DNA from: Lepidogalaxias salamandroides
Lineage: Eukaryota
Length of the DNA: 64,000 nt
Direction: 5' to 3' (one strand)
NCBI GenBank assembly: GCA_049190665.1
Contig: CM110852.1
The first letter of the stretch is position 1. The number at the start of each line of letters is the position of its first letter. The notes under the pieces are model-generated. The model was not told the DNA's origin. It searched no databases and saw nothing but the letters and a program-made list of their open reading frames with translations. Of the stretch, positions 1 to 51,571 are shown in pieces. A program made the position numbers and the translations under genes.

Positions 1-1139
1 CTGAATGATTAATAAGCTATAAGGATGTTCAAATAAACCTTGTTAAAATACTTGTGAGAGTGTGGGAGTCAGTCGTTGGACTCGGGGGGGCTGGGTGAGG
101 CTGCACACCTGTGGGCCAATCTGCAATCAGGCCCACAGGCTTAAACCAGCCACCTCCACACACACTCGAGGCTGAGCCCTGTCCGGATAGTACGTACCAC
201 CTGCTCACTCATTCAACATTCATTTGGGCAATAAACCGGTTTCAACATCGCCCTGAGTCCTGTCGTCAGGGAGAGGCCCTGTAGCCACCATGTGCCTGTT
301 CATTTGGTGGCTGTGGCAAGGGGTACGTCACAATACTGTTGATCTTTTCAGACTTTATACCTCAAATGGCCGTCAAACTGGTGCATAATCAATGGGTGTG
401 ATCTTATAGGCCCAGGGGTTCAAACGTGATCCGGTCACATTCTGGCTATTGGATTAAATCCTGAAACTGGATCAGGTCATCAAATCCTAGCTGTAATCTG
501 GATCAAATCTTCAAAATGCATAGTTCAAATGTACAACATTATATATAATATAATTAATTATAAAAGAAATCTGAATATAAATAAGATGTCATAAGTGTCT
601 TCACAAAATTAATAAACACAACATTGATCACTCATTAATCAAACATGACCACTTGTCCATCTGTAACCCACATTCAACTTGTCAAAAGTCGTTTTTAATT
701 GACTTCTTAAATGGCGTTAAATGTGTATAATGCCACAGTATTCCTGATGTTGTTCTGTACATCCAGCAGGTGGCGCTATGTGGGCTTATGGACAGCCCGA
801 CCCGAACATGCATCACTGCAAACACACTCGTCTATAATACTCATCTATATCCCATGTCTTTTGAACCCTTAAACATCTTCCCGTCGTGTGGTGGTTCAGT
901 ATAGCATGCGTACAATAGTGTTGCAGGGTTCCTAACTTTAAAAACTCTATTTGACTCTTGCTGTGAACCCAGTATGGTGAATGTGTGCACAAACTTAAAC
1001 GAACAGTGTTCTCCTGCTGCACATCTGGAAAGGTTGCGTCACTGAGCAGGGCTCTGGGAACCGGACCAGAGCCCTGCTGCCAGGGTTGGGCCCAGCAGGG
1101 GGGGTCTTATGTAAGGAGAAGCTCTTCAGTCTGCCGGGG

Positions 1140-1600
1140 TTCTGCGTGGTTATATACATGCTGGAAAACCCATCCCTATGTTAATGGGATGGGTTCTGCA
1201 TGGTTCTATACATACTGTAGTAGAACCCATCCCTATTTTAATGGGATGGGTTCTGCGTGGTTATATACATGCTGGAAAACCCATCCCTATGTTAATGGGA
1301 TGGGTTCTGCATGGTTCTATACATACTGTAGTAGAACCCATCCCTATTTTAATGGGATGGGTTCTACGTGGTTCTATACATGCTGGAGAGCCCATCCCTA
1401 TTTTAATGGGATGGGTCCTACATGGTTCTATACATGCTGGAAAACCCATCCCTATTTTAATGTGATGGGTTCTGCATGGTTCTATACATGCTGTAGTAGA
1501 ACCCATCCCTATTTTAATGGGATGGGTTCTGCATGGTTCTATACATGCTGTAGTAGAACCCATCCCTATTTTAATGGGATGGGATGGATGACTGGACTTT
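1140..1600. repeat. Minisatellite, ~60 bp unit x ~8 (copy 2 at 13143..13545, ~7 units)
   Basis: Tandem units of the form ctgcRtggttMtatacatRctg...cccatccctatKttaatgggatgggtt. Each unit contains a palindromic core (cccatccc-tattttaat-gggatggg). The ORF-track ORFs 985..1623, 1178..1465 and 1261..1605 are artefacts of this repeat. Confidence 0.9.
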
Positions 1601-1849
1601 TGCATACTTGCTTACTTACATAACGTAGGAAATGGTGTTGTTAAGGTAATACGCAGGTACAAGGTATGGTTGGTGTGAAGGCTGGACCCTCCTGCATGAA
1701 TTGGTGATTTAATCCTTCATTCAGTTTGTAAGTGATGCAGGTGGGAAATAATCCAAATGCCTTTGGAATGATGGGCTGATAGGCAGACAAATGAAAGAGA
1801 GGACTGGACTAATTGATCATATTTAATTGGCCTATAAGTTACTCACTTA

Positions 1850-2255
1850 TAGGCAGTGGTAGACAGTAACAAAGTACATTTACTTGAGTACTGTACTTAA
1901 GTACATTTTATTTATATTGTACTTTAGACTCCACTACATTTGCGCCGGATAAGCGCGTGACACAGGCGGACGCGCCCAGCCTCACGTAAACAAACCGAGC
2001 AGTCGGGACAGCAGGTTGATAATAATGATAAATGCATGCTCCCTGCATGTTCAAAGAATTGCTACAAGACATCGGAGAGTCTCAGTATTCTCTGGTAATC
2101 GACCAAAGCACCGACGTGGCCGCAGTAAAACAGTTGTGTGCTGTAGTACGTTACTTTAGCGTCTCATTGAACAAGATTGTTTCAACTTTTTTGGGCTCAG
2201 TCGATATGCAGTATAGGCCTACTCATTCTCTCTCTCTCACTCTAACCCCCCCCCC

Positions 2256-2295
<40 letters not shown>

Positions 2296-2960
2296 ATGTA
2301 ACTCAACAAATGTAACTCGTATTAATTATGTTTATCTATATTTGTTTCCATCTTTTGCTGGCAGGGAAAGAGGAGAAGCAAGAGATGCTGACAGTACTAC
2401 AACTGACAGAGACAGACACCAAGAGACAACAGAGACAGACAGGGCGCCTGGCCAATCATAGCGCTTAAGGGCGGGGCTTGTCCAGAAGCGCGGCGCAATC
2501 CATAATAACGCGGGACGGATCCTGGCAAAATGGCGGCTCGCCCATAATGCAACGCGGTGAAAGTCAGCTTCTGAAGCGCGATAACAACTTAACGTCAATG
2601 TTTTTGAATTCAATAAAACCTAGAGGGCTTATTTAGTTGTTGGAGTTAGACAGCTGGACCCTCCTGCATGAATTGGTGATTCAATCCTTCATTCAAAAAT
2701 AAATGCCACGAATATACAGTTTGTAAGTGATTATGCATATCGTGTGAATTAAATGATCATGTATGGCATAATCACATCCATCAAATTGCCAGGGATGGGA
2801 AGTAACGAAGTACAAGTACTTTGTTACAGTACTAAATCGATTTTTCAGTACTTTTGTACTTTTTGGAGTACTTATTTTTCGGACTACTTTGTACTTTTAC
2901 GAAGTACATTTGAACACAAATACTGGTACTTTCTACTCGTTACATTTTCAAAACAAAACA
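1850..2960. mobile_element. Degraded hAT-family element remnant (copy 2 at ~13800..14910)
   Basis: End-like sequences CAGTGGTAGACAGTAACAAAGTAC (1850) and CAGGGATGGGAAGTAACGAAGTACAAGTACTTTGTTAC (2796) resemble the TIR of the intact Tol2-like element at 7843. ORF 2032..2220 encodes ...LVIDQSTDVAAVKQLCAVVRYF..., which matches the conserved hAT transposase motif (xDESTDxSxxEQLxxxxRY). It is flanked by ~70 bp direct repeats at 1679-1745 and 2652-2735. Confidence 0.6.
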
Positions 2961-2982
2961 AAAAAGTCAAAAGTAAGCGGCC

Positions 2983-2988
2983 ACGTGA
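2983..2988. promoter_or_regulatory. Canonical E-box CACGTG ~160 bp upstream of the putative ATG of the coiled-coil gene
   Basis: ggccACGTGac sits in a GC-rich stretch with no TATA box. The paralogous copy is at 14935..14940. Confidence 0.3.
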
Positions 2989-3143
2989 CAGACCCAACGT
3001 TCTATTGACTGGTCTCCACGCGACTCGCAGCGGAATTGCACGAACTTGAACAGACGAGACGAACAAGAAAAGTTAAAACACGACGCACTTGGATTTTGTA
3101 CGATTTTTTAACTACGGCAAGCGACTGGAAATCTCCCGTCATC

Positions 3144-3152
3144 ATGAACCTG
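3144..3152 (+). CDS. Putative first coding exon (M-N-L) of the unrecognised coiled-coil gene, copy 1
   Basis: catcATGaacctg|gtgag: the ATG has a reasonable context and is followed by a GTGAG donor. It joins in phase 0 to the acceptor cacacag| at 3623. This is the weakest part of the model. Confidence 0.3.
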
Positions 3153-3623
3153 GTGAGATTCAGCATTTTCTGTCGGCAAATATCGTGTTTTTACAAAAAA
3201 AATGCCGTTTCTGATGTTTGTTTTTGAGTCGCACCAATCATGATACGCTTTGTGAGTTCATGCTTGTTTAACGAAATATATCAACTACGAAATTAAAATG
3301 TGTGGTCTAAAGAGATCCAGGAGAGGGCGCTGTGGCGCAGGTTAAACACGTTTGCTTTCTGTAAACATGTTCAACAATCCCAAAGCAGACGTGTACGCCT
3401 GTAATGAAGATTGTAATATGAAAGGCCCTCTTTGCCTTCACATTTATTTCATGTAGAATGTGACTTTGAATGATTGGTTTTTAATACAAGTAACCTATTA
3501 AACGATAATGAAATGCCACCCATGGTTAATTCTGTAACACACCTGATCTCTAACCATGAATACATGAGAGAATAAAATGCTTTGGAGTTGGTCTTGAGTG
3601 CCCTCTCTTGGTATCCCACACAG

Positions 3624-3965
3624 GAGTGTGTGCCCCTGCCACCCTGCACCACAGACGGCCCTGATGCTGGCTCCCCTGGCCCCAGCCAGCCCTCCTCGCC
3701 CTCCCTCCCCCTGGTTCAGGGTCACGTAGACCCGCTCCTCCACGCTCCCTCCGCGCCTACACCGGCTACTCCCGGGAGAGTTTCCAGAAGGAAGCGGGTT
3801 CGGCCCCAGCGTTTCCGGGACCCGGGCGATGAGCCGAGCACCGGCATCTCGGCCGTGCCCCCGATCTCGCGGCCGGCCAGCCCTCAGGGAGGCGGAGAGG
3901 AGGGGTCCTGGAGCCCTTCTGACCCCTTCTTTTCCCAGCTAGAGGACTCCTCTCTGGCGGCTGAG
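3624..3965 (+). CDS. Coiled-coil gene exon A (Pro/Ser-rich: ECVPLPPCTTDGPDAGSPGPSQPSSPS...FSQLEDSSLAAE)
   Basis: Acceptor cacacag|GAG. Long open frame (ORF 3582..4028). Donor GAG|gtacag at 3966, ending in phase 0. Conserved in copy 2 (15576..15917) with only a few substitutions. Confidence 0.55.
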
Positions 3966-4085
3966 GTACAGTTTAAGGTCCACCTAATAGCTGGCTGCTG
4001 TTCCTTCCTGCTGCTTGCGTTCCTATAGCGTTGACCCGTCCGCCCCCTCTGTCGTCCTTTCTGTGTGTCTCTCTCTGTCTGTCAG

Positions 4086-4544
4086 ACTCAGGAGAGGAGG
4101 CTGAGGGAGATGGTGCAGGAGCAGCGTCTGGCTGCCCTGAAGGAGCAGCATCTGGCTGCCCTGGAGGAGCCGCTGGAGGAACGCTACCTCCGCAACGCTG
4201 CCGTCTTGCCGGACTGGCGCCCCCGCCGGACCTCCTCCCTGGCCCCACGCGACTCGGGGTCTGGGGTCTCGACGGCTGCGGAGGAGCCCCTGAGGATCCA
4301 CGGCCTCGCGGTGGAGGAGTACCAGAGCCTCTACCACTCCGTGGTGGACCCCCTGCTGGTCACTACCAACGGCAAGCCCCGGAAGTACTCCCTGGACCTG
4401 GGCCGCAGGATCAAGGAGCAGCTGTTCCGGGCTCTCTACTGCCCCGGGGACCAGTCGGTCGCCGTGAGCATCCCGCAGTTTGACCTGGACGTCAGCGGTG
4501 AGCCTAGTTGCTCGCCACCCGCTGCGAAGAGGCACCGGTGCTGA
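4086..4544 (+). CDS. Coiled-coil gene exon or module B (TQERRLREMVQEQRLAALKEQHLAALEE...RKYSLDLGRRIKEQLFRALYCPGDQ...KRHRC*)
   Basis: Acceptor tctgtctgtcag|ACT in phase 0, matching exon A. The frame is open to TGA at 4542-4544. A retained donor-like ctgag|gtacag lies 12 nt downstream. An alternative internal donor AGCG|gtgagc is at 4498. No family was recognised. Confidence 0.5.
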   Translation, partial: TQERRLREMVQEQRLAALKEQHLAALEEPLEERYLRNAAVLPDWRPRRTSSLAPRDSGSGVSTAAEEPLRIHGLAVEEYQSLYHSVVDPLLVTTNGKPRKYSLDLGRRIKEQLFRALYCPGDQSVAVSIPQFDLDVSGEPSCSPPAAKRHRC

Positions 4545-4675
4545 GCTCCGCCTGAGGTACAGAATGAGGTCCACCTAATAGCTGGCTGCTGTTCTTTCCT
4601 GCTGCTTCCGTTCCTATAGCGTTGACCCGTCCATGCCTCTGTCATCCCTTCTGTGTGTGTCTCTCGCTCTGTCAG

Positions 4676-4954
4676 GCTCAGGAGAGGAGGAGGAGGGAGG
4701 TGGAGCAGCGTCTGGCTGTCCTACCGGAGCAGCGTCTGGCTGCCCTGCAGGAGGAGTGTCTGGCTGTCCTACAGGAGCAGCGTCTGGCTGCCCTGCAGGA
4801 GGAGTGTCTGGCTGTCCTACAGGAGCAGCGTCTGGCTGTCCTGCAGGAGGAGTGTCTGGCTGTCCTGCAGGAGGAGCGTCTGGCTTCCCTGGAGAAAAGC
4901 TACCTCCACAACGCCGCTGTCTTGGCCGAGGTGCCGGTGCTGAGTTCCGCCTGA
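4676..4954 (+). CDS. Module C: a second 'intron plus terminal exon' copy, with QEQRLAALQEECLAVL 48-bp in-frame repeats
   Basis: A 118-bp intron-like sequence (gtacag...aatagctggctgc...gttcctatagcgttgacccgtcc...tctgtcag|) is followed by GCTCAGGAGAGGAGG... in phase 0 relative to exon A's donor. It ends in TGA (4952-4954) overlapping the retained donor cctgag|gtacag. Confidence 0.4.
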   Translation, partial: AQERRRREVEQRLAVLPEQRLAALQEECLAVLQEQRLAALQEECLAVLQEQRLAVLQEECLAVLQEERLASLEKSYLHNAAVLAEVPVLSSA

Positions 4955-5076
4955 GGTACAGTATAAGGTTCACCTAATAGCTGGCTGCAGTTCTTTCCTG
5001 CTGCTTCCGTTCCTATAGCGTTGACCCGTCCACGCCTCTGTCATCCCTTCCGTGTGTGTCTCTCTATCTCTGTCAG

Positions 5077-5256
5077 GCTCAGGAGAGGAGGTGGAGGGAG
5101 GTGGTGCAGGAGCAGCATCTGGTTTTCCTACAGGAGCAGCGTCTGGCTGCCCTGCAGGAGCAGCGTCTGGCTGCCCTGCAGGAGGAGTGTCTGGCTGCCC
5201 TTGAGAAACGCTACCTCCGCAACGCCGCTGTCAAGACGGAGCTGAGCTCCACCTAA
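5077..5256 (+). CDS. Module D: a third terminal-exon copy (AQERRWREVVQEQHLVFLQEQRLAALQEQRLAAL...KRYLRNAAVKTELSST*)
   Basis: Same acceptor module, ctctgtcag|GCTCAGGAG, in phase 0. It ends in TAA at 5254-5256. The downstream donor has been lost (gccagg). Confidence 0.35.
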   Translation, partial: AQERRWREVVQEQHLVFLQEQRLAALQEQRLAALQEECLAALEKRYLRNAAVKTELSST

Positions 5257-5524
5257 GGCCAGGCTGCTTTGTACATAACTGTATATAATAGTAATAGATG
5301 TATAACATGATAATAGCATAGTAGTATTTTTAAGACGTATTGAACAATTTAAGTGAGTTTGTTTTATTCCCCCTAAAATCCAAACAAAAAACAATATAAA
5401 AATACACAAAAACCTCAAAAAAACATGAATTATTTATTGTCAAATGTAATTTTGTGTTTTTAACAGTATAGTCGTTAAGCTTGTTTTACAGTGGACTGGC
5501 CAGGTCTGTGTTTCTTGTCTTCAG

Positions 5525-5940
5525 GTTGGCTGATCCATCATTTACCAAAGAGGAGAAGACGGATGGAGACGAAGAGAGACGAAGAGGGAGAGATGCACAG
5601 CGATACAAGGAGAGCCCAAGACAGATGGAGATGAAGACAGCCCCAGGAGGAGAGAGATCAAGAGAAAGAGCTTCTCTAAGGTACACATGTGAAACACTGC
5701 AAAATAAGCTGCACACTGTTGTCTACTGTTGTGACAGTGCATGCTCAGTTCCTTATCTCCCTCCATCAGGCTCAGGAGAGGGGGAGGAGCAGGGTGGAGC
5801 AAGAGGAGAACCAAGAACACAGCCGCACCCCACCACCTGATGCTTCTGCTGCCGCCAGATGACCGCCACATCATGACCGGCCCAGAACACCACCGCCTCT
5901 CATTCATTTACACCCGTCACTGTGTCCAATAAAGTCACAC
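5525..5940 (+). other. Two putative 3' exons or 3'UTR of the coiled-coil gene, with the polyA signal
   Basis: The first exon runs from ttgtcttcag|GTTGGCTG... to ...ctctaag|gtacac (5525..5680) and is K/E/R-rich. The second runs from ctccatcag|GCTCAGGAGAGGGGG (5770) to AATAAA at 5928-5933. The same arrangement is present in copy 2 at 17830..18258. Confidence 0.35.
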
Positions 5941-6759
5941 ACATTGGCACACATTTCTGATTGTTGGATATTTTTTACCTCGTTTTTGGCACTGTATGAT
6001 GTGTGGTGGGGTGTGTGTGTGTGTGTGTGTATGTTGACACTTCATCCACTACCAGTGTGTTGCACCCACCTGGGTGATGCATGGCAGCCATTATGCCATT
6101 ACTCATGCCCCGTTTGGCCTAGAGTCATGAAACTTTGCACACATATGCCCCTCCTCACGAGGAACAAATTTGCCTCAAGAACCCATATATTCCGGTTACT
6201 TAGATTTTCCGCCATTTTGAATTTTGTGAAAAACACTTAAAATCTATCTCCTCCTCTATTGAGCAATCTGTATGAAACTTGGCAGACGCAATCTAGGGAC
6301 CGATATCTACAGTTCTGATTCGGCAAAAGTTTGAAAAGTCGAAAAACGGAGCCGCTATGAGCCAATGAAGATTGCGGAGGGCGTGGCTTTTCACAAAGGT
6401 GTATAACTTCTGAACGATTGGACTGAACACCACAACACTTTGTAGGCATGTCATCATACATAACCGGAGGCTAACCCTCCATGATTGGCCAAATCAAACA
6501 AAATGGGGGCGCTAGAGAGCTCATTTCCGGTTTAGGCCTAACCGCGATGCCAATTTTTCCGAAACTTTGTACAGCGGTAGAAGGGCATGCCTAGTGGCCA
6601 ATGGATAAAGATGAAGCTGATTAGCCACAGGGTGGCGCTATAACAAGGTAAAAGGCTTGAAAGTGGCTACATTTCAAACAGGCATATCTCATGCCACATT
6701 TAAACTAAATTCATGACATTTTGCACTTAAATGCTATGGCTTATTGTGCAAACTGCTCG

Positions 6760-7526: not shown

Positions 7527-7583
7527 ATGAGGGAAATCGTCCATTTACAGGCTGGCCAATGTGGAAACCAGATCGGAGCGAAG
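7527..7583 (+). CDS. tubb4b: Beta-tubulin exon 1 (MREIVHLQAGQCGNQIGAK)
   Basis: The invariant beta-tubulin N-terminus. Donor AAG|gtgaaa. 57 nt, matching the conserved exon-1 size in vertebrate TUBB genes. Confidence 0.95.
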
Positions 7584-7701
7584 GTGAAACGCTTTACTTT
7601 CCTTCAAGTTGATTTAATAGATGAATGTGTTTTAAAGCTAACGCTAACTAGCTTCAGACAGCTTGGCGGCTAACTACATTTCCCATGATGCATCATTCCA
7701 G

Positions 7702-7810
7702 TTCTGGGAGGTGATCAGCGACGAACACGGGATCGACCCTACCGGGACCTACCATGGGGACAGCGACCTGCAACTGCAGAGAATCAACGTGTACTACAAC
7801 GAAGCTACAG
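7702..7810 (+). CDS. tubb4b: Beta-tubulin exon 2 ([36 protein letters not shown]-)
   Basis: Acceptor cattccag|TTC, donor ACAG|gtgtag. 109 nt, the conserved exon size. Confidence 0.95.
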
Positions 7811-7842
7811 GTGTAGGACTCATCACTACACACATGTAGGAC

Positions 7843-8919
7843 CAGAGGTGTCAAAAGTATTCACATTCATTACTCAAGTAGAAGTATAGATATTAGGGTT
7901 TAAAAAGACTTCTGTAGAAGTTGAAGTATCAACTCAAGCTTTTTACTCAAGTAAAAGTATAAAAGTACTGGTTTCAAAACTACTTAAAGTATAAAAGTAA
8001 AAGTAATGTAAGGGAAAGAAATGCCATTAAGGACAAAAGCTTAAGCTGCGCCACAGGGGCCTATGTGCACTACCACACCTCCCCAAAAAACATGTTTCTA
8101 AAGGCCATAATGACTATAATGTTATATTAAAATGTTAATGTTAATTTGGGATGCACCTGTTTCAGCCACATATATGCCCATTGAAAATGAAGCACTTTAG
8201 AACAATGCAAATACATTAAAGAACCATACTACTGAGCATTATTAACATGTGTTTCATGGAGCAGAAGATATGATGACTAGTTGCCCATAAATATTGTAAT
8301 GGTGCAAAAAGTCAAACTTCAGAGGCATGTTATCAATAGCCTTTATTGGAATGTCAATGTAGAAACAATTACCCTTGTATGGTTGTCTATATACAGTATA
8401 CATTCGTGCTGTCAAAATGAATGATTAATCCAAGTGATTAATACAAAATTAAAATAACCCTGATTGATACCTTCCTGGTATGAGTCTCTGCCTCAGACAT
8501 CTTCATATTACGTCTGCTATGTCCTTGCTGGAGTGTGATGTGATTTGTGTCACGTGCAGGTGCGATGGATCGCGTACAAACCAATAGGGTGTCGGAATGG
8601 TAGATGTTTATACTTCTCATCCAACCACACTCAAATTCACTCTATCCGGATAGCGGGATTTATCTGGATAGGTTGTTTTTTTGTGTGTGTTTTTTTTTAA
8701 CAATGACAAGCCGTAATGAAAACAAGCCGAAATGAAATAGGAGTAACGAGGCTATTTTTAAAATGTAAGGAGTAGAAAGTACAGATCATTGCGTTAAAAT
8801 GTAAGGAGTAGAAGTAAAAAGTAGGCTGAAAAATAATTACTCCAGTAAAGCATAGATACTCAAAAATTCTACTTAAGTAAGGTAACAAAGTATTTGTACT
8901 TCGTTACTTGACACCTCTG
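7843..8919. mobile_element. Tol2-like hAT non-autonomous element (1077 bp) in tubulin intron 2
   Basis: TIRs CAGAGGTGTCAAAAGTA... (7843) and ...TACTTGACACCTCTG (8919); compare the Tol2 terminus CAGAGGTGTAAAGTACTTGAGTAA. Perfect 8-bp target-site duplication TGTAGGAC at 7835-7842 and 8920-8927. Internal AGTACTTGAGTAAAAG-type subterminal repeats. No transposase ORF is present. Confidence 0.85.
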
Positions 8920-9278
8920 TGTAGGACTCATTACTACACACATGTAGGCCTCGTCTTTTATCCATCAACTAGCGTGGTGACCTTAACTTGAATTGTCTTG
9001 GCCTTATTTCAAATATTTCTAAATTCTTTATTTTCCTAATTGCTTCGAAATTAACATTAAAAGGCAACTGTATAAGATGGTAAACATTTACAAATGGCTT
9101 CTAAACGGACAAAATAAAGATTTAACATAAATATGCGTAGATGCATCAGAATATACTTGTAGATATTTCTTATTTGCCATCTCCTGCCTCTTCTAGAGGC
9201 AAACGAACGGTAAACTCGGCACCCGATGCACATCCCCGACTCTAACACGACATCGAAACGTCCCTGTGTTTGTTTTAA

Positions 9279-9431
<153 letters not shown>

Positions 9432-9689
9432 TGATGTCATTACCCTGGATTATTGTGTCTTTTTATTTACCTTTTAGTTCTCCAGCTGTTGTGATGATGC
9501 TGTTGCAACATATTAAAGGTTATCTTTAGGCTTTTTCTAAACTTCTATAGATTTGCTTCCTTAAGCTTCATAGAATCACACTTGGATTTAGTGAAAGTTC
9601 TCAACTCCTGTCCTACACACAGTGATGCACTCTTCTAGTTTCTGAATCACCCCTCGCTCTATGTTCACTCTGGGCTCGTTTGCTGGTGA

Positions 9690-9962
<273 letters not shown>

Positions 9963-10029
9963 TGACGGGTCAGTGTCCCGTGTGTGGTTTGTGTCCTTCG
10001 ACCGCGTCACATCTCCCTTCGCCCTCCAG

Positions 10030-10352
10030 GTGTCGGACACGGTGGTGGAGCCGTACAACGCCACCCTCTCCATGCACCAGTTGGTGGAGAACACGGACGA
10101 GACGTTCTGCATCGACAACGAGGCGCTGTACGACATCTGCTTCCGCACGCTCAAGCTGACCACGCCCACCTACGGCGACCTCAACCACCTGGTGTCGGCC
10201 ACCATGAGCGGCGTCACCACCTGCCTCCGCTTCCCCGGGCAGCTCAACGCCGACCTGCGCAAGCTGGCCGTCAACATGGTGCCCTTCCCCCGCCTGCACT
10301 TCTTCATCCCGGGCTTCGCCCCGCTCACGAGCCGCGGGAGCCAGCAGTACAG
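10030..10352 (+). CDS. tubb4b: Beta-tubulin exon 5 ([108 protein letters not shown])
   Basis: Acceptor ccctccag|GTG, donor TACAG|gtggga. The protein is continuous with exon 4. Confidence 0.9.
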
Positions 10353-10359
10353 GTGGGAC

Positions 10360-11430
<1,071 letters not shown>

Positions 11431-11595
11431 TAAACGTTGTGTGTCCCTGTGTTGTGCTGTTGAGAAACTAGTGAAATGATACCTGGAAAGGGCTGGGCAC
11501 AAACGGTCGCTTAGCAACCACGACACTAACGGCAGCTGCTAAGCTGATTTTGCTTCGTTTGGGGGCGGGGCTTTTCAGATGACGGGCTGTAGTAG

Positions 11596-11766
<171 letters not shown>

Positions 11767-12002: not shown

Positions 12003-14203
12003 ACTGAATGATTAATAAGCTATAAGGATGTTCAAATAAACCTTGTTAAAATACTTGTGAGAGTGTGGGAGTCAGTCGTTGGACTCGGGGGGGCTGGGTG
12101 AGGCTGCACACCTGTGGGCCAATCTGCAATCAGGCCCACAGGCTTAAACCAGCCACCTCCACACACACTCGAGGCTGAGCCCTGTCCGGATAGTACGTAC
12201 CACCTGCTCACTCATTCAACATTCATTTGGGCAATAAACCGGTTTCAACATCGCCCTGAGTCCTGTCGTCAGGGAGAGGCCCTGTAGCCACCATGTGCCT
12301 GTTCATTTGGTGGCTGTGGCAAGGGGTACGTCACAATACTGTTGATCTTTTCAGACTTTATACCTCAAATGGCCGTCAAACTGGTGCATAATCAATGGGT
12401 GTGATCTTATAGGCCCAGGGGTTCAAACGTGATCCGGTCACATTCTGGCTATTGGATTAAATCCTGAAACTGGATCAGGTCATCAAATCCTAGCTGTAAT
12501 CTGGATCAAATCTTCAAAATGCATAGTTCAAATGTACAACATTATATATAATATAATTAATTATAAAAGAAATCTGAATATAAATAAGATGTCATAAGTG
12601 TCTTCACAAAATTAATAAACACAACATTGATCACTCATTAATCAAACATGACCACTTGTCCATCTGTAACCCACATTCAACTTGTCAAAAGTCGTTTTTA
12701 ATTGACTTCTTAAATGGCGTTAAATGTGTATAATGCCACAGTATTCCTGATGTTGTTCTGTACATCCAGCAGGTGGCGCTATGTGGGCTTATGGACAGCC
12801 CGACCCGAACATGCATCACTGCAAACACACTCGTCTATAATACTCATCTATATCCCATGTCTTTTGAACCCTTAAACATCTTCCCGTCGTGTGGTGGTTC
12901 AGTATAGCATGCGTACAATAGTGTTGCAGGGTTCCTAACTTTAAAAACTCTATTTGACTCTTGCTGTGAACCCAGTATGGTGAATGTGTGCACAAACTTA
13001 AACGAACAGTGTTCTCCTGCTGCACATCTGGAAAGGTTGCGTCACTGAGCAGGGCTCTGGGAACCGGACCAGAGCCCTGCTGCCAGGGTTGGGCCCAGCA
13101 GGGGGGGTCTTATGTAAGGAGAAGCTCTTCAGTCTGCCGGGGTTCTGCGTGGTTATATACATGCTGGAAAACCCATCCCTATGTTAATGGGATGGGTTCT
13201 GCATGGTTCTATACATACTGTAGTAGAACCCATCCCTATTTTAATGGGATGGGTTCTACGTGGTTCTATACATGCTGGAGAGCCCATCGCTATTTTAATG
13301 GGATGGGTCCTACAGGGTTCTATACATGCTGGAAAACCCATCCCTATTTTAATATGATGGGTTCTGCATGGTTCTATACATGCTGTAGTAGAACCCATCC
13401 CTATTTTAATGTGATGGGTTCTGCATGGTTCTATACATGCTGTAGTAGAACCCATCCCTATTTTAATGGGATGGGTTCTGCATGGTTCTATACATGCTGT
13501 AGTAGAACCCATCCCTATTTTAATGGGATGGGATGGATGACTGGACTTTTGCATACTTGCTTACTTACATAACGTAGGAAATGGTGTTGTTAAGGTAATA
13601 CGCAGGTACAAGGTATGGTTGGTGTGAAGGCTGGACCCTCCTGCATGAATTGGTGATTTAATCCTTCATTCAGTTTGTAAGTGATGCAGGTGGGAAATAA
13701 TCCAAATGCCTTTGGAATGATGGGCTGATAGGCAGACAAATGAAAGAGAGGACTGGACTAATTGATCATATTTAATTGGCCTATAAGTTACTCACTTATA
13801 GGCAGTGGTAGACAGTAACAAAGTACATTTACTTGAGTACTGTACTTAAGTACATTTTATTTATATTGTACTTTAGACTCCACTACATTTGCGCCGGATA
13901 AGCGCGTGACACAGGCGGACGCGCCCAGCCTCACGTAAACAAACCGAGCAGTCGGGACAGCAGGTTGATAATAATGATAAATGCATGCTCCCTGCATGTT
14001 CAAAGAATTGCTACAAGACATCGGAGAGTCTCAGTATTCTCTGGTAATCGACCAAAGCACCGACGTGGCCGCAGTAAAACAGTTGTGTGCTGTAGTACGT
14101 TACTTTAGCGTCTCATTGAACAAGATTGTTTCAACTTTTTTGGGCTCAGTCGATATGCAGTATAGGCCTACTCATTCTCTCTCTCTCACTCTAACCCCCC
14201 CCC

Positions 14204-14245
<42 letters not shown>

Positions 14246-17200
14246 ATGTAACTCAACAAATGTAACTCGTATTAATTATGTTTATCTATATTTGTTTCCA
14301 TCTTTTGCTGGCAGGGAAAGAGGAGAAGCAAGAGATGCTGACAGTACTACAACTGACAGAGACAGACACCAAGAGACAACAGAGACAGACAGGGCGCCTG
14401 GCCAATCATAGCGCTTAAGGGCGGGGCTTGTCCAGAAGCGCGGCGCAATCCATAATAACGCGGGACGGATCCTGGCGAAATGGCGGCTCGCCCATAATGC
14501 AACGCGGTGAAAGTCAGCTTCTGAAGCGCGATAACAACTTAACGTCAATGTTTTTGAATTCAATAAAACCTAGAGGGCTTATTTAGTTGTTGGAGTTAGA
14601 CAGCTGGACCCTCCTGCATGAATTGGTGATTTAATCCTTCATTCAAAAATAAATGCCACGAATATACAGTTTGTAAGTGATTATGCATATCGTGTGAATT
14701 AAATGATCATGTATGGCATAATCACATCCATCAAATTGCCAGGGATGGGAAGTAACGAAGTACAAGTACTTTGTTACAGTACTAAATCGATTTTTCAGTA
14801 CTTTTGTACTTTTTGGAGTACTTATTTTTCGGACTACTTTGTACTTTTACGAAGTACATTTGAACACAAATACTGGTAGTTTCTACTCGTTACATTTTCA
14901 AAACAAAACAAAAAAGTCAAAAGTAAGCGGCCACGTGACAGACCCAACGTTCTATTGACTGGTCTCCACGCGACTCGCAGCGGAATTGCACGAACTTGAA
15001 CGACAGACGAGACGAACAAGAAAAGTTAAAACACGACGCACTTGGATTTTGTACGATTTTTTAACTACGGCAAGCGACTGGAAATCTCCCGTCATCATGA
15101 ACCTGGTGAGATTCAGCATTTTCTGTCGGCAAATATCGTGTTTTTACAAAAAAATGCCGTTTCTGATGTTTGTTTTTGAGTCGCACCAATCATGATACGC
15201 TTTGTGAGTTCATGCTTGTTTAACGAAATATATCAACTACGAAATTAAAATGTGTGGTCTAAAGAGATCCAGGAGAGGGCGCTGTGGCGCAGGTTAAACA
15301 CGTTTGCTTTCTGTAAACATGTTCAACAATCCCAAAGCAGACGTGTACGCCTGTAATGAAGATTGTAATATGAAAGGCCCTCTTTGCCTTCACATTTATT
15401 TCATGTAGAATGTGACTTTGAATGATTGGTTTTTAATACAAGTAACCTATTAAACGGTAATGAAATGCCACCCATGGTTAATTCTGTAACACACCTGATC
15501 TCTAACCATGAATACATGAGAGAATAAAATGCTTTGGAGTTGGTCTTGAGTGCCCTCTCTTGGTATCCCACACAGGAGTGTGTGCCCCTGCCACCCTGCA
15601 CCACAGACGGCCCTGATGCTGGCTCCCCTGGTCCCAGCCAGCCCTCCTCGCCCTCCCTCCCCCTGGTTCAGGGCCACGTAGACCCGCTCCTCCACGCTCC
15701 CTCCGCGCCTACACCGGCTACTCCCGGGAGAGTTTCCAGAAGGAAGCGGGTTCGGACCTTGCGTTTCCGGGACCCGGGCGATGAGCCGAGCACCGGCATC
15801 TCTGCCGTGCCTCCGATCTCGCGGCCGGCCGGCCCTCAGGGAGGCGGAGAGGAGGGGTCCTGGAGCCCTTCTGACCCCTTCTTTTCCCAGCTGGAGGACT
15901 CCTCTCTGGCAGCTGAGGTACAGTATAAGGTCCACCTAATAGCTGGCTGCTGTTCCTTCCTGCTGCTTGGGTTCCTATAGCGTTGACCCGTCCGCCCCCT
16001 CTGTCGTCCTTTCTGTGTGTCTCTCTCTGTCTGTCAGACTCAGGAGAGGAGGCTGAGGGAGATGGTGCAGGAGCAGCGTCTGGCTGCCCTGAAGGAGCAG
16101 CATCTGGCTGCCCTGGAGGAGCCGCTGGAGGAACGCTACCTCCGCAACGCTGCCGTCTTGCCGGACTGGCGCCCCCGCCGGGCCTCCTCCCCGGCCCCAC
16201 GCGACTCGGGGTCTGGGGTCTCGCCGGCTGCGGAGGAGCCCCTGAGGATCCACGGCCTCGCGGTGGAGGAGTACCAGAGCCTCTACCACTCCGTGGTGGA
16301 CCCCCTGCTGGTCACCGCCACCGGCAAGCCCCGCCAGTACTCCCTGGAGCTGGGCCGCAAGATCAAGGAGCAGCTGTTCCGGGCTCTCTACTGCCCCGGG
16401 GACCGGTCAGGGGCCGTGAGCATCCCGCAGTTTGACCTGGACGTCAGCGGTGAGCCTAGTTGCTCGCCACCCGCCGCGAAGAGGCACCGGTGCTGAGCTC
16501 CGCCTGAGGTACAGAATGAGGTCCACCTAATAGCTGGCTGCAGTTCTTTCCTGCTGCTTCCGTTCCTATAGCGTTGACCCGTCCATGCCTCTGTCATCCC
16601 TTCTGTGTGTGTCTCTCGCTCTGTCAGGCTCAGGAGAGGAGGAGGAGGGAGGTGGAGCAGCGTCTGGCTGTCCTACCGGAGCAGCGTCTGGCTGCCCTGC
16701 AGGAGGAGTGTCTGGCTGTCCTGCAGGAGCAGCGTCTGGCTGCCCTGCAGGAGGAGTGTCTGGCTGTCCTACAGGAGCAGCGTCTGGCTGCCCTGCAGGA
16801 GGAGTGTCTGGCTGTCCTACAGGAGCAGCGTCTGGCTGCCCTGCAGGAGGAGTGTCTGGCTGCCCTGCAGGAGGAGTGTCTGGCTGCCCTGCAGGAGGAG
16901 TGTCTGGCTGCCCTGCAGGAGGAGTGTCTGGCTGCCCTGCAGGAGGAGTGTCTGGCTGTCCTGCAGTAGGAGCGTCTGGCTTCCCTGGAGAAGAGCTACC
17001 TCCACAACACCGCTGTCTTGGCCGAGGTGCCGGTGCTGAGCTCCGCCTGAGGTACAGTATAAGGTTCACCTAATAGCTGGCTGCAGTTCTTTCCTGCTGC
17101 TTCCGTTCCTATAGCGTTGACCCGTCCACGCCTCTGTCATCCCTTCCGTGTGTGTCTCTCTATCTCTGTCAGGCTCAGGAGAGGAGGTGGAGGGAGGTGG

Positions 17201-18300
17201 TGCAGGAGCAGCATCTGGTTTTCCTACAGGAGGAGTGTCTGGCTGCCCTGGAGAAACGCTACCTCTGCAACACCGATGTCTTGACGGAGCTGAATTGAAA
17301 TAAGGGGAGTCAGGCGACCAGTTTGTCAAAGAAAAGCATATTTATTGGTAAAGTGCGGGGAGCGGGGGTGGGGGTGTAAGGCAACTCAAATCCTTCCCGT
17401 CTGGGGTCTGGCTTCATCCGGCCTAGGGAGAGAGGGCAGAGGAGAGCGGGTAGGGTTAGTGGGGGCGGCTAGGCCCGACTCTCAGACCTCCGAGCATTGG
17501 GCCTTGGCAATTAGCCTAATGCCGCTCACCTGTTGCTGCTTGCTCAGGCAGTGAACAGGTAATTAGGGACGTACTTGCCCTCAATTAGCTTCCCCAATAG
17601 CCTGCGTTGGGGGAAGGGTCTCTGACCGTGCTGCTGAAGGGGCCTCTGATGCCTACCCCCCCTCTGCCAGGGGCACTGGGGTGCCACACCCCTAAAAACC
17701 AAACAAAAAGCAATATAAAAATACACAAAAACCTAAAAAAAAGAATGATTTATTGTCAAATTGAATTTTGTGTTTTTAACAGTATAGTCGTTAAGCTTGT
17801 TTTACAGTGGACTGGCCAGGTCTGTGTTTCTTGTCTTCAGGTTGGCTGATCCATAATTTACCGAGGAGGAGAAGATGGATGGAGACAAAGAGAGACAAAG
17901 AGGGAGAGATGCACAGCGATACAAGGAGAGCCCAAGACAGATGGAGATGAAGACAGCCTCAGGAGGAGAGAGATCAAGAGAAAGAGCTTCTCTAAGGTAC
18001 ACATTTGAAACACTGCTAAAGTAAGTAAAATAAGCTGCACACTGTTGTCTACTGTTGTGACAGTGCATGCTCAGTTCCTTCTCTCCCTCCATCAGGCTCA
18101 GGAGAGGAAGAGGAGCAGGGTGGAGCAAGAGGAGAACCAAGAACACAGCCGCACCCCACCACCTGATGCTTCTGCTGCCGCCAGATGACCGCCACATCAT
18201 GACCGGCCCAGAACACCACCGCCTCTCATTCATTTACACCCGTCTCTGTGTCCAATAAAGTCACACACATTGGCACACATTTCTGATTGTTGGATATTTT
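12003..18300. repeat. Segmental duplication, copy 2 of the ~6 kb block
   Basis: Same content and order as 1..5990. Differences are: one fewer unit in the hairpin minisatellite; a 3-bp indel near 15003; more 48-bp coding repeats at 16680-16960; a ~400 bp unique insert at 17300-17700; and divergent last modules. Confidence 0.9.
15097..18258 (+). CDS. Paralogous copy 2 of the coiled-coil gene (gene-level span)
   Basis: ATG at 15097; exon A 15576..15917; module B 16038..16496; module C from 16628 with ~9 48-bp repeats and an in-frame TAG at 16967-16969; a divergent module D at about 17160-17300; and terminal exons ending at AATAAA near 18250. Confidence 0.4.
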
Positions 18301-19007
18301 TTACGTTGATTTGGCACTGTGCAGTACACTACACGTTTATTTTATTAAAACTAATTAAACTGTTTAGTGACAGTTCTGAATGACTAGACTCTGGGGCTGG
18401 GTGAGGCTGCACACCTGTGGGGCAACAGTAATCAAGGCCCACAGGTTAAACCAGCCACCTTCACACACTCAGGACTGAGCCCTGACGTCAGTTTCTACCA
18501 TCTGCTCAACAAACAACTCATTGTACATCTCAGCAATAAACCGCATTCAACATGGCCCTGTGTCATGTCGTCTTGGAGAGGCCCTGCAGCAGCCGTTTTC
18601 AGCTTCGGTGGCAGTAGCTAGGACTACGCTACAAAGGGTTATTAAACTTAAGCACATTCTTAAAACATGTTCCTTGTTTTCCTGAGAGAAATGTTTATTG
18701 TACATTGACATTTACAACTCAAAAAAATGAATTGGCAGAAAATGTGTCATTTTTATTACATTTAGCTTACTCAATCACAAGGAAACAATTGCATTGTGAA
18801 AACCTCATTCAAAACCATTGATGAACAATTAAAAACAATCATCACCATTACCCATCTATCTGATACACAACCAACTTAAGTCACATAACCACAACCAGAA
18901 AAACTAGTGGAAAAGAACCCCTTCATACAAAGGAACAAGGTCACCAATACACATACAGCCCACTGCAAACACTGACACAACTCCACATGCACAGCATAGC
19001 ACACCGC

Positions 19008-19498: not shown

Positions 19499-48335
<28,837 letters not shown>

Positions 48336-49339: not shown

Positions 49340-50520
49340 ATTAGGGCTGTCAGTTAAACGCGTTATTAACGGCGATAACGCAAACCCATTTTAACGGCGT
49401 CAATTTTTTTGACGCCGTTAAAAAAAAATGGATACGCCCCCCCCCCCCGTCAACAATCGCTAGCGGGGATATACGCGCCACCCCCCCCCCCCCGTCAACA
49501 ATCGCTAGCGGGGATATACGCGCCACCCCCCCCCCCCTGTCAACAATCGCTAGCGGGGATATACGCGCCAGCACCCCCCCCCCCCCCCCCGTCAACAATC
49601 GCTAGCGGGGATATACGCGCCACCCCCCCCCCTCCCCCCCGTCAACAATCGCTAGCGGGGATATACGCGCCACCCCCCCCCCCTCCCCCCGTCAACAATC
49701 GCTAGCGGGGATATACGCGCCCCCCCCCCCCCCCCCCCCGTCAACAATCGCTAGCGGGGATATACGCGCCACCCCCCCCCCCCCCGTCAACAATCGCTAG
49801 CGGGGATATACGCGCCACCCCCCCCCCCCCCCCGTCAAGAATCGCTAGCGGGGATATACGCGCCACCCCCCCCCCCTCCCCCCCGTCAACAATCGCTAGC
49901 GGGGATATACGCGCCACCCCCCCCCCCCTCCCCCCCGTCAACAATCGCTAGCGGGGATATACGCGCCACCCCCCCCCCCTCCCCCCGTCAACAATCGCTA
50001 GCGGGGATATACGCGCCCCCCCCCCCCCCCCCCGTCAACAATCGCTAGCGGGGATATACGCGCCACCCCCCCCCCCCCGTCAACAATCGCTAGCGGGGAT
50101 ATACGCGCCACCCCCCCCCCCCGTCAAGAATCGCTAGCGGGGATATACGCGCCACCCCCCCCCCCTCCCCCCCGTCAACAATCGCTAGCGGGGATATACG
50201 CGCCACCCCCCCCCCCCTCCCCCCCGTCAACAATCGCTAGCGGGGATATACGCGCCACCCCCCCCCCTCCCCCCCGTCAACAATCGCTAGCGGGGATATA
50301 CGCGCCAGCACCCCCCCCCCCCGTCAACAATCGCTAGCGGGGATATACGCGCCAGCACCCCCCCCCCCCCCCCCGGCAACAATCGCTAGCGGGGATATAC
50401 GCGCCCCCCCCCCCCCCCCGCCAACAATCAACAATCGCTAGCGGGGATATACGCGCACGTTAACTATGACATTATGTGATTAATCATGATTAAATATTTT
50501 AATCGATTGACAGCTCTAAT
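49340..50520. mobile_element. Non-autonomous TIR element (1181 bp) carrying an internal ~44-50 bp minisatellite with variable-length poly-C tracts
   Basis: Terminal inverted repeats ATTAGGGCTGTCA (49340) and TGACAGCTCTAAT (50520). Subterminal TTAACG/CGTTAA motifs and an internal palindrome taacggcgtcaa-ttttttt-ttgacgccgtta. The interior holds ~22 tandem units of gtcaacaatcgctagcggggatatacgcgcca(C)10-22. Flanked by (TA)n on both sides. No ORF. Confidence 0.65.
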
Positions 50521-50529
50521 ATATATATA

Positions 50530-51571
50530 TCTACCGGGCCCGTTGTCGGCACAAAGTCAAACACGTTCCCAGTGGGTGTTGGACTCCGCCAAGGCTGCCC
50601 TTTGTCACCGGTCCTGTTTGTGGTATTCATGGACAGGATCTCTAGGCGCAGCCGAGGTGAGGAGAGTGTCCGGTTCGGTGACCTCAGAATTGCGTCTCTG
50701 CTTTTTGCGGATGACGTGGTTCTGCTGGCTTCATCGGACCGTGACCTTCAGCACGCACTGGGGCGGTTTGCAGCCGAGTGTGAAGCGGCCGGGATGAGGG
50801 TCAGCACCTCCAAGTCTGACGCCATGGTTCTCTGCCGGAAAACGGTGGGTTGCTCCCTCCAGGTTGGGAATGAGTCCCTGCCCCAAGCGAAGGAGTTCAA
50901 GTATCTCGGGGTCTTGTTCACGAGTGAGGGTAAAATGGAGCGTGAGATCGACAGGCGGATCGGTGCAGCGTCAGCAGTAATGCGGGCGCTGTACCGGACC
51001 GTCGTGGTGAAGAGGGAGCTGAGCCGGAAGGCGAAGCTCTCGATTTACCAGTCGGTCTACGCTCCTACCCTCACCTATGGTCATGAGCTCTGGGTAGTGA
51101 CCGAAAGAACAAGATTGCGGATACAAGCGGCCGAAATGAGCTTCCTCCGTAGGGTGGCTGGGCTCAGCCTTAGGGATAGGGTGAGGAGCTCAGCCTTAGG
51201 GATAGGGTGAGGAGCTCAGCCTTAGGGATAGGGTGAGGAGCTCAGACATCAGGAGGGAGCTCAGAGTAGAGCCGTTGCTCCTTTGCGTCGAAAGGAGCCA
51301 GCTGAGGTGGTTCGGGCATCTGATCAGGATGCCCCCCGGACGCCTCCCTTTGGAGGTTTTCCGAGCACGTCCAACTGGGAGGAGACCACGAGGTAGACCC
51401 AGGACCCGCTGGAGGGATTATATATCCCTCCTGGCCTGGGAACGCCTCGGGATCCCCCAGGAGGAGCTGGAAAGCGTCGCTGGGGAGAAGGACGTCTGGA
51501 ATAGCCTGCTCAGCCTACTGCCCCCGCGACCCGACTCGGATAAGCGGTGGACAATGGATGGATGGATGGAT

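Follow-up and report, generated by a model that had tools for sequence, protein, structure and literature searches.

The window analyzed here, a 64,000-bp stretch of Lepidogalaxias salamandroides DNA (assembly GCA_049190665.1, contig CM110852.1), carries two tandem copies of a gene related to human C22orf31. Past the stop codon of each copy lie two segments, which we call modules C and D, built around short GC-rich repeats that can be read as a coiled coil. A preliminary description of this DNA took the array in module C for a coding minisatellite that had expanded in copy 2 and acquired a premature TAG. Our analysis favors a different view. The repeat is probably an exon-derived 24-bp minisatellite housed in post-stop pseudo-exons, either 3' untranslated region (3'-UTR) or intron, of the duplicated gene, and the two copies differ there through ordinary repeat-length change and point mutation. 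The altered array length and the TAG are most likely products of neutral repeat evolution between tandem gene copies. As such, the locus adds one more example of familiar kinds of event and reveals no new mechanism.

Exon 3 of the host gene matches the Pfam family DUF4662 (E = 3e-18, 67 bits against a cut-off of 27), with residues 133-233 aligning to profile positions 156-259 of 269. All 13 database matches from a protein search with exons 2-3 carry PF15578. The best protein relative, with nothing closer found, is a 329-aa hypothetical protein from the hake Merluccius polli (73% identity), and other matches bear the source name "putative protein C22orf31". No sequence from the same species was found by this search, by a protein search with the module C ORF (no match at E <= 0.01) or by two exact-pattern scans of metagenome contigs. 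Judged by these similarities, the host gene is a teleost C22orf31/DUF4662 homolog. Its human counterpart is uncharacterised and was found only in lists, for example one from a human sperm proteome and one that forms an expression signature of testicular germ cell tumours (PMC5931513, PMC10298883). We laid out the exons by tblastn with an M. polli protein (P0001) and by direct reading of the sequence (Table 1). Like other teleost homologs, exon 3 contains the ...EEYQ.LYHSVVDPLL...LGRRIK... core and a basic C-terminal tail. Unlike the rest of the family, the gadiform-like copies have an exon 2 rich in Pro and Ser and an exon 3 that opens with a short helical QEQRLAAL repeat, occur as tandem amplifications (two or more copies in the window and at least three in M. 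polli), and bear duplicates of intron 2 and the exon 3 start after the stop.

The position of that stop is central to the argument. Read straight through, exon 3 ends in ...SIPQFDLDVSGEPSCSPPAAKRHRC followed by a TGA (4542-4544 in copy 1, 16494-16496 in copy 2), and the pattern DLDVSGEP.C..P..KR.R. plus stop is common to the window gene and other teleost homologs. Six other teleost homologs, together with M. polli genomic sequence, end in ...D[VL]D[VIY]S[GD]EP...K[KR].[RK]. and a stop at the same point as the window TGA. The homolog tails read ...VDLDVSGEPECEKPPRKRAKH, ...IDVDISGEPQCQQPRRKRARR, ...IDLDVSGEPRCQQPLCKRARR, ...NIDVDYSDEPLPEEPIKKRARR (Coilia), ...VDVSDEPGYLPPAKTRRRH (L002, an ENA contig from another related fish) and, with its stop, ...NLDVSDEPKCSQPTAKKCRR (M. 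polli genomic sequence); tail and stop are common to the matches P0002, P0003, P0010, P0011 and P0013. The exon 3 tail and stop are, by this comparison, the ancestral end of the protein, so modules C and D lie after a conserved stop. It sits 131 bp upstream of module C, and the array begins 156 bp past it.

The modules after the stop are copied from the gene itself. Each module is preceded by a segment resembling intron 2. Intron 2 and the two segments align end to end with 88-95% identity (88-89% for the pre-C and pre-D segments against intron 2, 95% between the two), and all three begin with gtacag and end in ...tcag/[GA]CTCAGGAGAGGAGG, where the slash marks a splice boundary. A donor-like GAG/GTACAG, identical to the exon 2 donor, lies 12 nt past the stop. 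The modules open with the start of exon 3, (A/T)QERR..REV, continue as [QEQRLAAL]n and close with ..RYL.NAAVL. What is repeated is an intron, splice signals included, together with the exon sequence next to it, the pattern of a tandem intron-plus-exon duplication. By these alignments, C and D are serial copies of intron 2 and the 5' end of exon 3 that were inserted after the stop. In M. polli, one module with 2 repeat units occupies the corresponding position in two paralogs, and L002 has one module with ~15 units; the module is therefore older than these species. The duplication that gave both C and D (~5% divergence) belongs to the window's lineage alone, and the duplication of the gene with its 12-kb period is younger still.

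Farther downstream, two more exon-like segments, E and F, are conserved in the window, M. polli and L002. Segment F has counterparts at ~12148-12330 of the M. polli contig (L001) and ~7910-8100 of L002 and is strongly conserved across the three species. It contains the first AATAAA past the stop (5928-5933 in copy 1, 18254-18259 in copy 2), and both the cross-species similarity and the segmental duplication stop just past it. Segment F is probably the true 3' end of the transcript. Exon 3, modules C and D and segment F all start with cag/GCTCAGGAGAGG. Because F, too, shares the gtacag...cag/GCTCAGGAGAGG unit, the 3' end of the gene is a stack of serial copies of one unit. The donor 12 nt past the stop would open a 3'-UTR intron, with C and D as intron content or as optional 3'-UTR cassette exons.

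The arrays differ between the two gene copies in both modules. Their unit is a GC-rich 24-mer with the consensus CAGGAG[C/G]AG[C/T]GTCTGGCTG[C/T]CCTG. Tandem Repeats Finder (TRF) describes positions 4702-4891 of copy 1 as a 48-bp period repeated 4.0 times or a 24-bp period repeated 7.7 times, and positions 16654-16987 of copy 2 as a 24-bp period repeated 13.9 times (score 514, 89% matches). The 48-bp array of the preliminary description is thus present, but its basic period is 24 bp. The earlier figure of ~4 units in copy 1 agrees with the 4.0 periods of 48 bp, that is, eight 24-mers; the ~9 units given for copy 2 should be ~7 (14 x 24 bp). In module D the change runs the other way. Its internal array counts 4 units in copy 1 but 2 in copy 2, a loss of 48 bp that the preliminary description had not noted; both indels are exact multiples of 24. 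In the pairwise alignment, module C of copy 2 differs in length from that of copy 1 by a single +144 bp indel. This surplus consists of one 48-bp CAG-CGT / GAG-TGT ("Q/E") pair and four E-type 24-mers, and four identical 24-mers stand at 16845-16940 of copy 2. What sets the E-type unit apart from the Q-type is CGT>TGT (Arg>Cys), a transition at a CpG site that has been amplified along the array. Repeat number has therefore changed quickly between young tandem duplicates, as the idea of a rapidly evolving coding minisatellite held; it is the coding status that does not follow.

The TAG had been placed correctly and is a single G>T change relative to the GAG of copy 1. It is a stop only in the frame that reads the helical repeat, which we refer to as the coil frame. 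Each unit can undergo 72 different single substitutions, of which about 3-4 produce a coil-frame stop, and at ~3% divergence over 336 bp a single TAG would be close to the neutral expectation. Its earlier interpretation as a premature stop, or as pseudogenisation of module C, loses its footing once the surrounding sequence is seen to be free of detected constraint in any frame. The unique head and tail of module C differ from M. polli by 2 synonymous and 8 non-synonymous changes in 34 codons, a small sample, and the proportions of non-synonymous and synonymous differences (pN 0.104, pS 0.08, from the same small sample) leave no frame in which pN is well below pS.

The splice sites also argue against translation of the array, which lies outside the conserved open reading frame (ORF) and has no consensus splice site that would link it to that ORF in frame. 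The coil frame can be reached only through a phase-0 donor, GAC/GTCAGC (4490/4491), that has a C at -1 and a C at +3. Judged against the MAG/GTRAGT consensus, this is a very poor donor. The only consensus donor, G/GTGAGC (4497/4498), is in phase 1; from it the module would be read as GSGEEEEGGGAASGCP..., a Gly/Ser/Cys-rich sequence in which 16967-16969 is not a codon. That donor is missing in M. polli, which has GCGATGAGC. Use of either site would drop the conserved tail. The array is open in all three forward frames and in at least one of the reverse frames, so an open frame here reflects the nature of the repeat and says nothing about coding. A minus-strand gene across the array was rejected on similar grounds, as the long minus-strand ORF at 16569-17069 is the repeat read backwards (PAGQPDTP units). 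Finally, the coil frame is not kept open in all copies and relatives, being closed by the TAG in copy 2 and by a TAG in most L002 units.

Several observations nevertheless weigh against untranslated modules. The M. polli annotation (P0001 and its paralogs) joins ...FNLD straight to the module and translates the coil frame, so at least one gene predictor took the module for a last coding exon. Five of the six modules from the window and M. polli have an open coil frame with a stop near the module end (C and D of copy 1, D of copy 2 and two from M. polli). In its unique parts the module has diverged from M. polli by ~10%, somewhat below the exon dS of ~0.19, a difference that over 102 nt is not significant. 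L002 may be 5'-truncated and possibly a dead copy, for which reason its TAGs are weak evidence.

These points could be taken to mean that C and D are alternative C-terminal coding exons encoding a helical tail of variable length, and that the TAG truncates or disables the module C isoform of copy 2. Three M. polli paralogs have gene models with the required splice (...NLD/AQDRRLREV...ALS and stop), the acceptors before C and D are intact (polypyrimidine tract and cag/G), and every length change is a multiple of 24 bp, preserving the frame. However, multiples of 24 are automatic given a 24-bp unit, and the M. polli model comes without visible transcript support. Splicing of this kind also needs the GAC/GTCAGC donor and skips the teleost-conserved tail and stop, while the strong donor leads into another frame. 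No sign of purifying selection is seen in the module (in the small sample above), and Arg>Cys and Arg>His changes by CpG decay are spread along the array. We consider alternative coding exons quite unlikely. A stronger version, in which a fast-evolving gene amplified in tandem truly uses the modules as alternative 3' coding exons, with paralog-specific tail lengths (8 versus 14 units) and a TAG that sets a different end point, strikes us as improbable.

Untranslated pseudo-exons would be equally free to drift if the gene itself were dead, and both window copies could be pseudogenes or decaying genes with arrays and a TAG downstream. In both, exon 1 is 71 nt shorter than in M. polli, leaving 43 nt in phase 1, which does not fit the phase-0 frame of exon 2. 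From the conserved ATG the ORF would run for only 27 codons, and exon 2 has no ATG in frame. The ratio of non-synonymous to synonymous rates (dN/dS, or omega) of the exons against M. polli is high, at 0.5-0.8. Yet exons 2 and 3 are open over 266 codons in both copies and retain the conserved tail, and a comparison of the paralogs over exon 2 gives 7 synonymous against 3 non-synonymous changes (omega 0.16, on small numbers). The M. polli exon 1 is itself only predicted, and a candidate phase-0 alternative mini first exon, ATGAACCTG/GTGAGA, occurs at 3145-3153, although it is not conserved in M. polli. Decay of both genes is unlikely in our judgment.

Each gene copy lies in a ~6 kb segment duplicated in tandem with a period of ~12.0 kb. 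Counting substitutions from the pairwise alignment in copy 1 coordinates, we found the divergence to be mosaic. Over the first 3.5 kb (upstream sequence, exon 1 and most of intron 1) the copies differ by ~0-0.16% (0/1136 at 1-1136; 3/1920 at 1584-3504), compared with ~3% across exons 2-3 and the 3' exons (10/342 in exon 2, 15/459 in exon 3, 21/622 at 5370-5995). The contrast between the upstream region and 3505-4555 is significant (Fisher p = 2e-10). Within the diverged part, introns differ less than exons do, with 2/120 in intron 2 and 0/149 in the segment before module D, followed by 6/49 in the module D tail. Exons 2-3 and the 3' exons equal or exceed the modules in divergence, and the earlier statement that the paralogs differ specifically in their alternative C-terminal modules is therefore wrong. 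The 25 differences at 801 positions of exons 2-3 comprise 12 synonymous and 13 non-synonymous changes (omega ~0.38). Positive selection on the exons was rejected because synonymous sites are also elevated (dS 0.059, against 0.7% in adjacent introns); CpG-rich exon composition or patchy gene conversion is the more likely cause. The mosaic pattern suggests that gene conversion or unequal exchange has recently homogenised the 5' half and that the CpG-rich exons have changed faster. Each gene copy also has, upstream of it, a 57-bp minisatellite with 111/165-bp higher-order periods (1137-1583 and 13140-13532), and the two differ by one 57-bp unit.

Such similarity between the copies raises the concern that the unit-count difference, the TAG or the duplication itself could be an artefact of sequencing or assembly, for example through collapse or expansion of a repeat or through a haplotype misplaced as a tandem copy. 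Gadiform genomes are known to be prone to assembly errors at tandem repeats (PMC5241972; PMC6868369), and the 3.5 kb upstream of the gene is near-identical between copies (3 substitutions in 3056 bp). Against this, the window has no Ns, and 6 kb of unique spacer with an intact beta-tubulin gene separates the copies, which show ~3% exon difference and several independent indels. The array differences are structured, an extra Q/E pair plus a run of E-type units, unlike random errors. M. polli also has at least three tandem copies of the DUF4662 gene, starting at 10001, 17854 and 21423 of JAOPHQ010004925.1 (10001-21648), each with one post-stop module. A DUF4371 transposase-like ORF is located upstream. 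On this combination of no Ns, a unique spacer, independent indels and tandem copies in M. polli, we rejected a false haplotypic duplication and take the duplication to be real; an artefact in any of the three features is very improbable. The tandem copies in M. polli further imply that gadiform-like fishes either share an amplification of the gene or have undergone it repeatedly.

The end of module D shows a second kind of change. As had been described, it differs in copy 2, ending in the coil frame with ...LEKRYLCNTDVLTELN and a stop where copy 1 has ...LEKRYLRNAAVKTELSST and a stop. Two or three of the six changes in the aligned tail are CpG transitions, and an adjacent AA/TT pair restores the ancestral gtcttg in copy 2. 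The ~400 bp insertion reported to follow is a 395-bp sequence found in copy 2 only, but it replaces 124 bp of ancestral sequence and is not a plain insertion. M. polli has the copy 1 sequence directly after its module, which makes copy 1 the ancestral state. The breakpoint falls inside the last codons of module D, and this is why copy 2 reads ...TELN and a stop, a different "C-terminus". By BLAST, the 395 bp have no match in the rest of the window, in L001 or in L002, and they show no sign of a repeat element.

These observations fit a simple series of events for post-stop pseudo-exons. Intron 2 and the helical 5' end of exon 3 were copied in after the conserved stop, creating a pseudo-exon that underwent one further duplication in the window's lineage and so became modules C and D. 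Later the gene as a whole, as far as its poly(A) signal, was duplicated in tandem with the 12-kb period. Replication slippage or unequal exchange could then have shifted the array lengths, so that in copy 2 module C grew by 144 bp and module D shrank by 48 bp. The sequence also accrued point changes, a good many of them in CpG dinucleotides, with one G>T giving the TAG, and a deletion-plus-insertion took off the end of module D in copy 2.

Both the source of the modules and the behavior of the arrays resemble known systems. In tandem exon duplication as generally known, the shared element is a serial unit of an intron and the start of the next exon, with donor, polypyrimidine tract and acceptor, as seen here for exon 3, C, D and F. 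The copies here differ in lying after the stop and not within the ORF, in not matching the phase of the one consensus donor that exon 3 has, and in holding an expanding minisatellite. With GC-rich minisatellites (variable number tandem repeats, head-to-tail arrays of 10-100-bp units), the array shares a 24-bp GC-rich unit, interspersed variant units, runs of identical units and whole-unit changes in copy number between very similar sequences. Our comparison is between paralogs and not alleles, and the array is coding-derived, so it mimics an in-frame coiled-coil repeat. Gadiform genomes have a very high density of tandem repeats, including heterozygous ones (PMC5241972), and codfish genomes are tandem-repeat-rich (PMC5241972, PMC5894186); the window, whose content looks vertebrate and most likely that of a gadiform-like teleost, gives 90 TRF rows in 64 kb.

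Table 1. Features of the two gene copies in window coordinates.
Feature	Copy 1	Copy 2	Strand	Basis or remark
Segmental duplication, copy 1	1-5995			self-BLAST
Segmental duplication, copy 2		12004-18320	+	self-BLAST and pairwise alignment
Exon 1	3298-3340	15250-15292		
Exon 2	3624-3965	15576-15917	+	tblastn with M. polli P0001; ORF intact
Intron 2	3966-4085			
Exon 3	4086-4544	16038-16496	+	Pfam; DUF4662 core and tail DLDVSGEPSCSPPAAKRHRC
Intron-2-like segment before C		16509-16627	+	119 bp, 88% identical to intron 2; same donor, acceptor ...ctctgtcag
Module C	4676-4955	16628-17051	+	copy of exon 3 5' part fused to copy of 27 bp around the stop
Minisatellite in module C	4701-4892	16653-16988	+	8 units in copy 1, 14 in copy 2; TRF, unit table and alignment
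TAG in coil frame	4871-4873 (GAG)	16967-16969	+	not a stop in the other two forward frames
Second intron-2-like segment, before D		17052-17172	+	95% identical to pre-C segment; identical between paralogs
Module D	5077-5256	17173-17298	+	4 units in copy 1, 2 in copy 2; 6 differences in last 49 aligned bp
Copy-2-specific segment	5246-5369 (124 bp replaced)	17294-17688	+	395 bp
Conserved exon-like segment E	5492-5680	17808-17996	+	alignment of window, M. polli and L002
Conserved terminal exon-like segment F	5770 to ~5950	18096-18280	+	begins cag/GCTCAGGAGAGG

Between the two C22orf31-like copies is a complete beta-tubulin gene (7527-11720, plus strand), located with a TUBB query. Its ORF is in frame, and three extra GT-AG introns split the region of the last exon, after ..VVPSPK, in the Arg282 codon and in the Trp397 codon (9943-10029, 10354-10985 and 11333-11622). 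The middle one is almost wholly a 23-bp satellite of 26 units (10365-10964). In vertebrate beta-tubulin genes the last exon is normally single and long, and extra introns would be unusual. Elsewhere the window holds a PARP catalytic-domain exon on the minus strand (41893-42288), two reverse-transcriptase fragments resembling long interspersed nuclear elements (50503-51207, plus strand; 31273-31917, minus strand), a 52-bp satellite with long poly-C runs (49437-50456), (CA)n microsatellites and spliced genes.

The main value of the locus is as a caution. Because repeats derived from an exon stay open in several frames and keep their splice signals, they resemble coding "modules". An automated pipeline may then translate them, as happened in the M. 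polli gene model, and what is a neutral point change gets read as a premature stop. The locus also illustrates serial intron-plus-exon duplication, later minisatellite growth and the mosaic divergence of tandem gene copies. Were the modules translated after all, it would show paralog-specific variation in protein-tail length within an uncharacterised gene family, and gadiform fishes could draw on such tails for rapid diversification.

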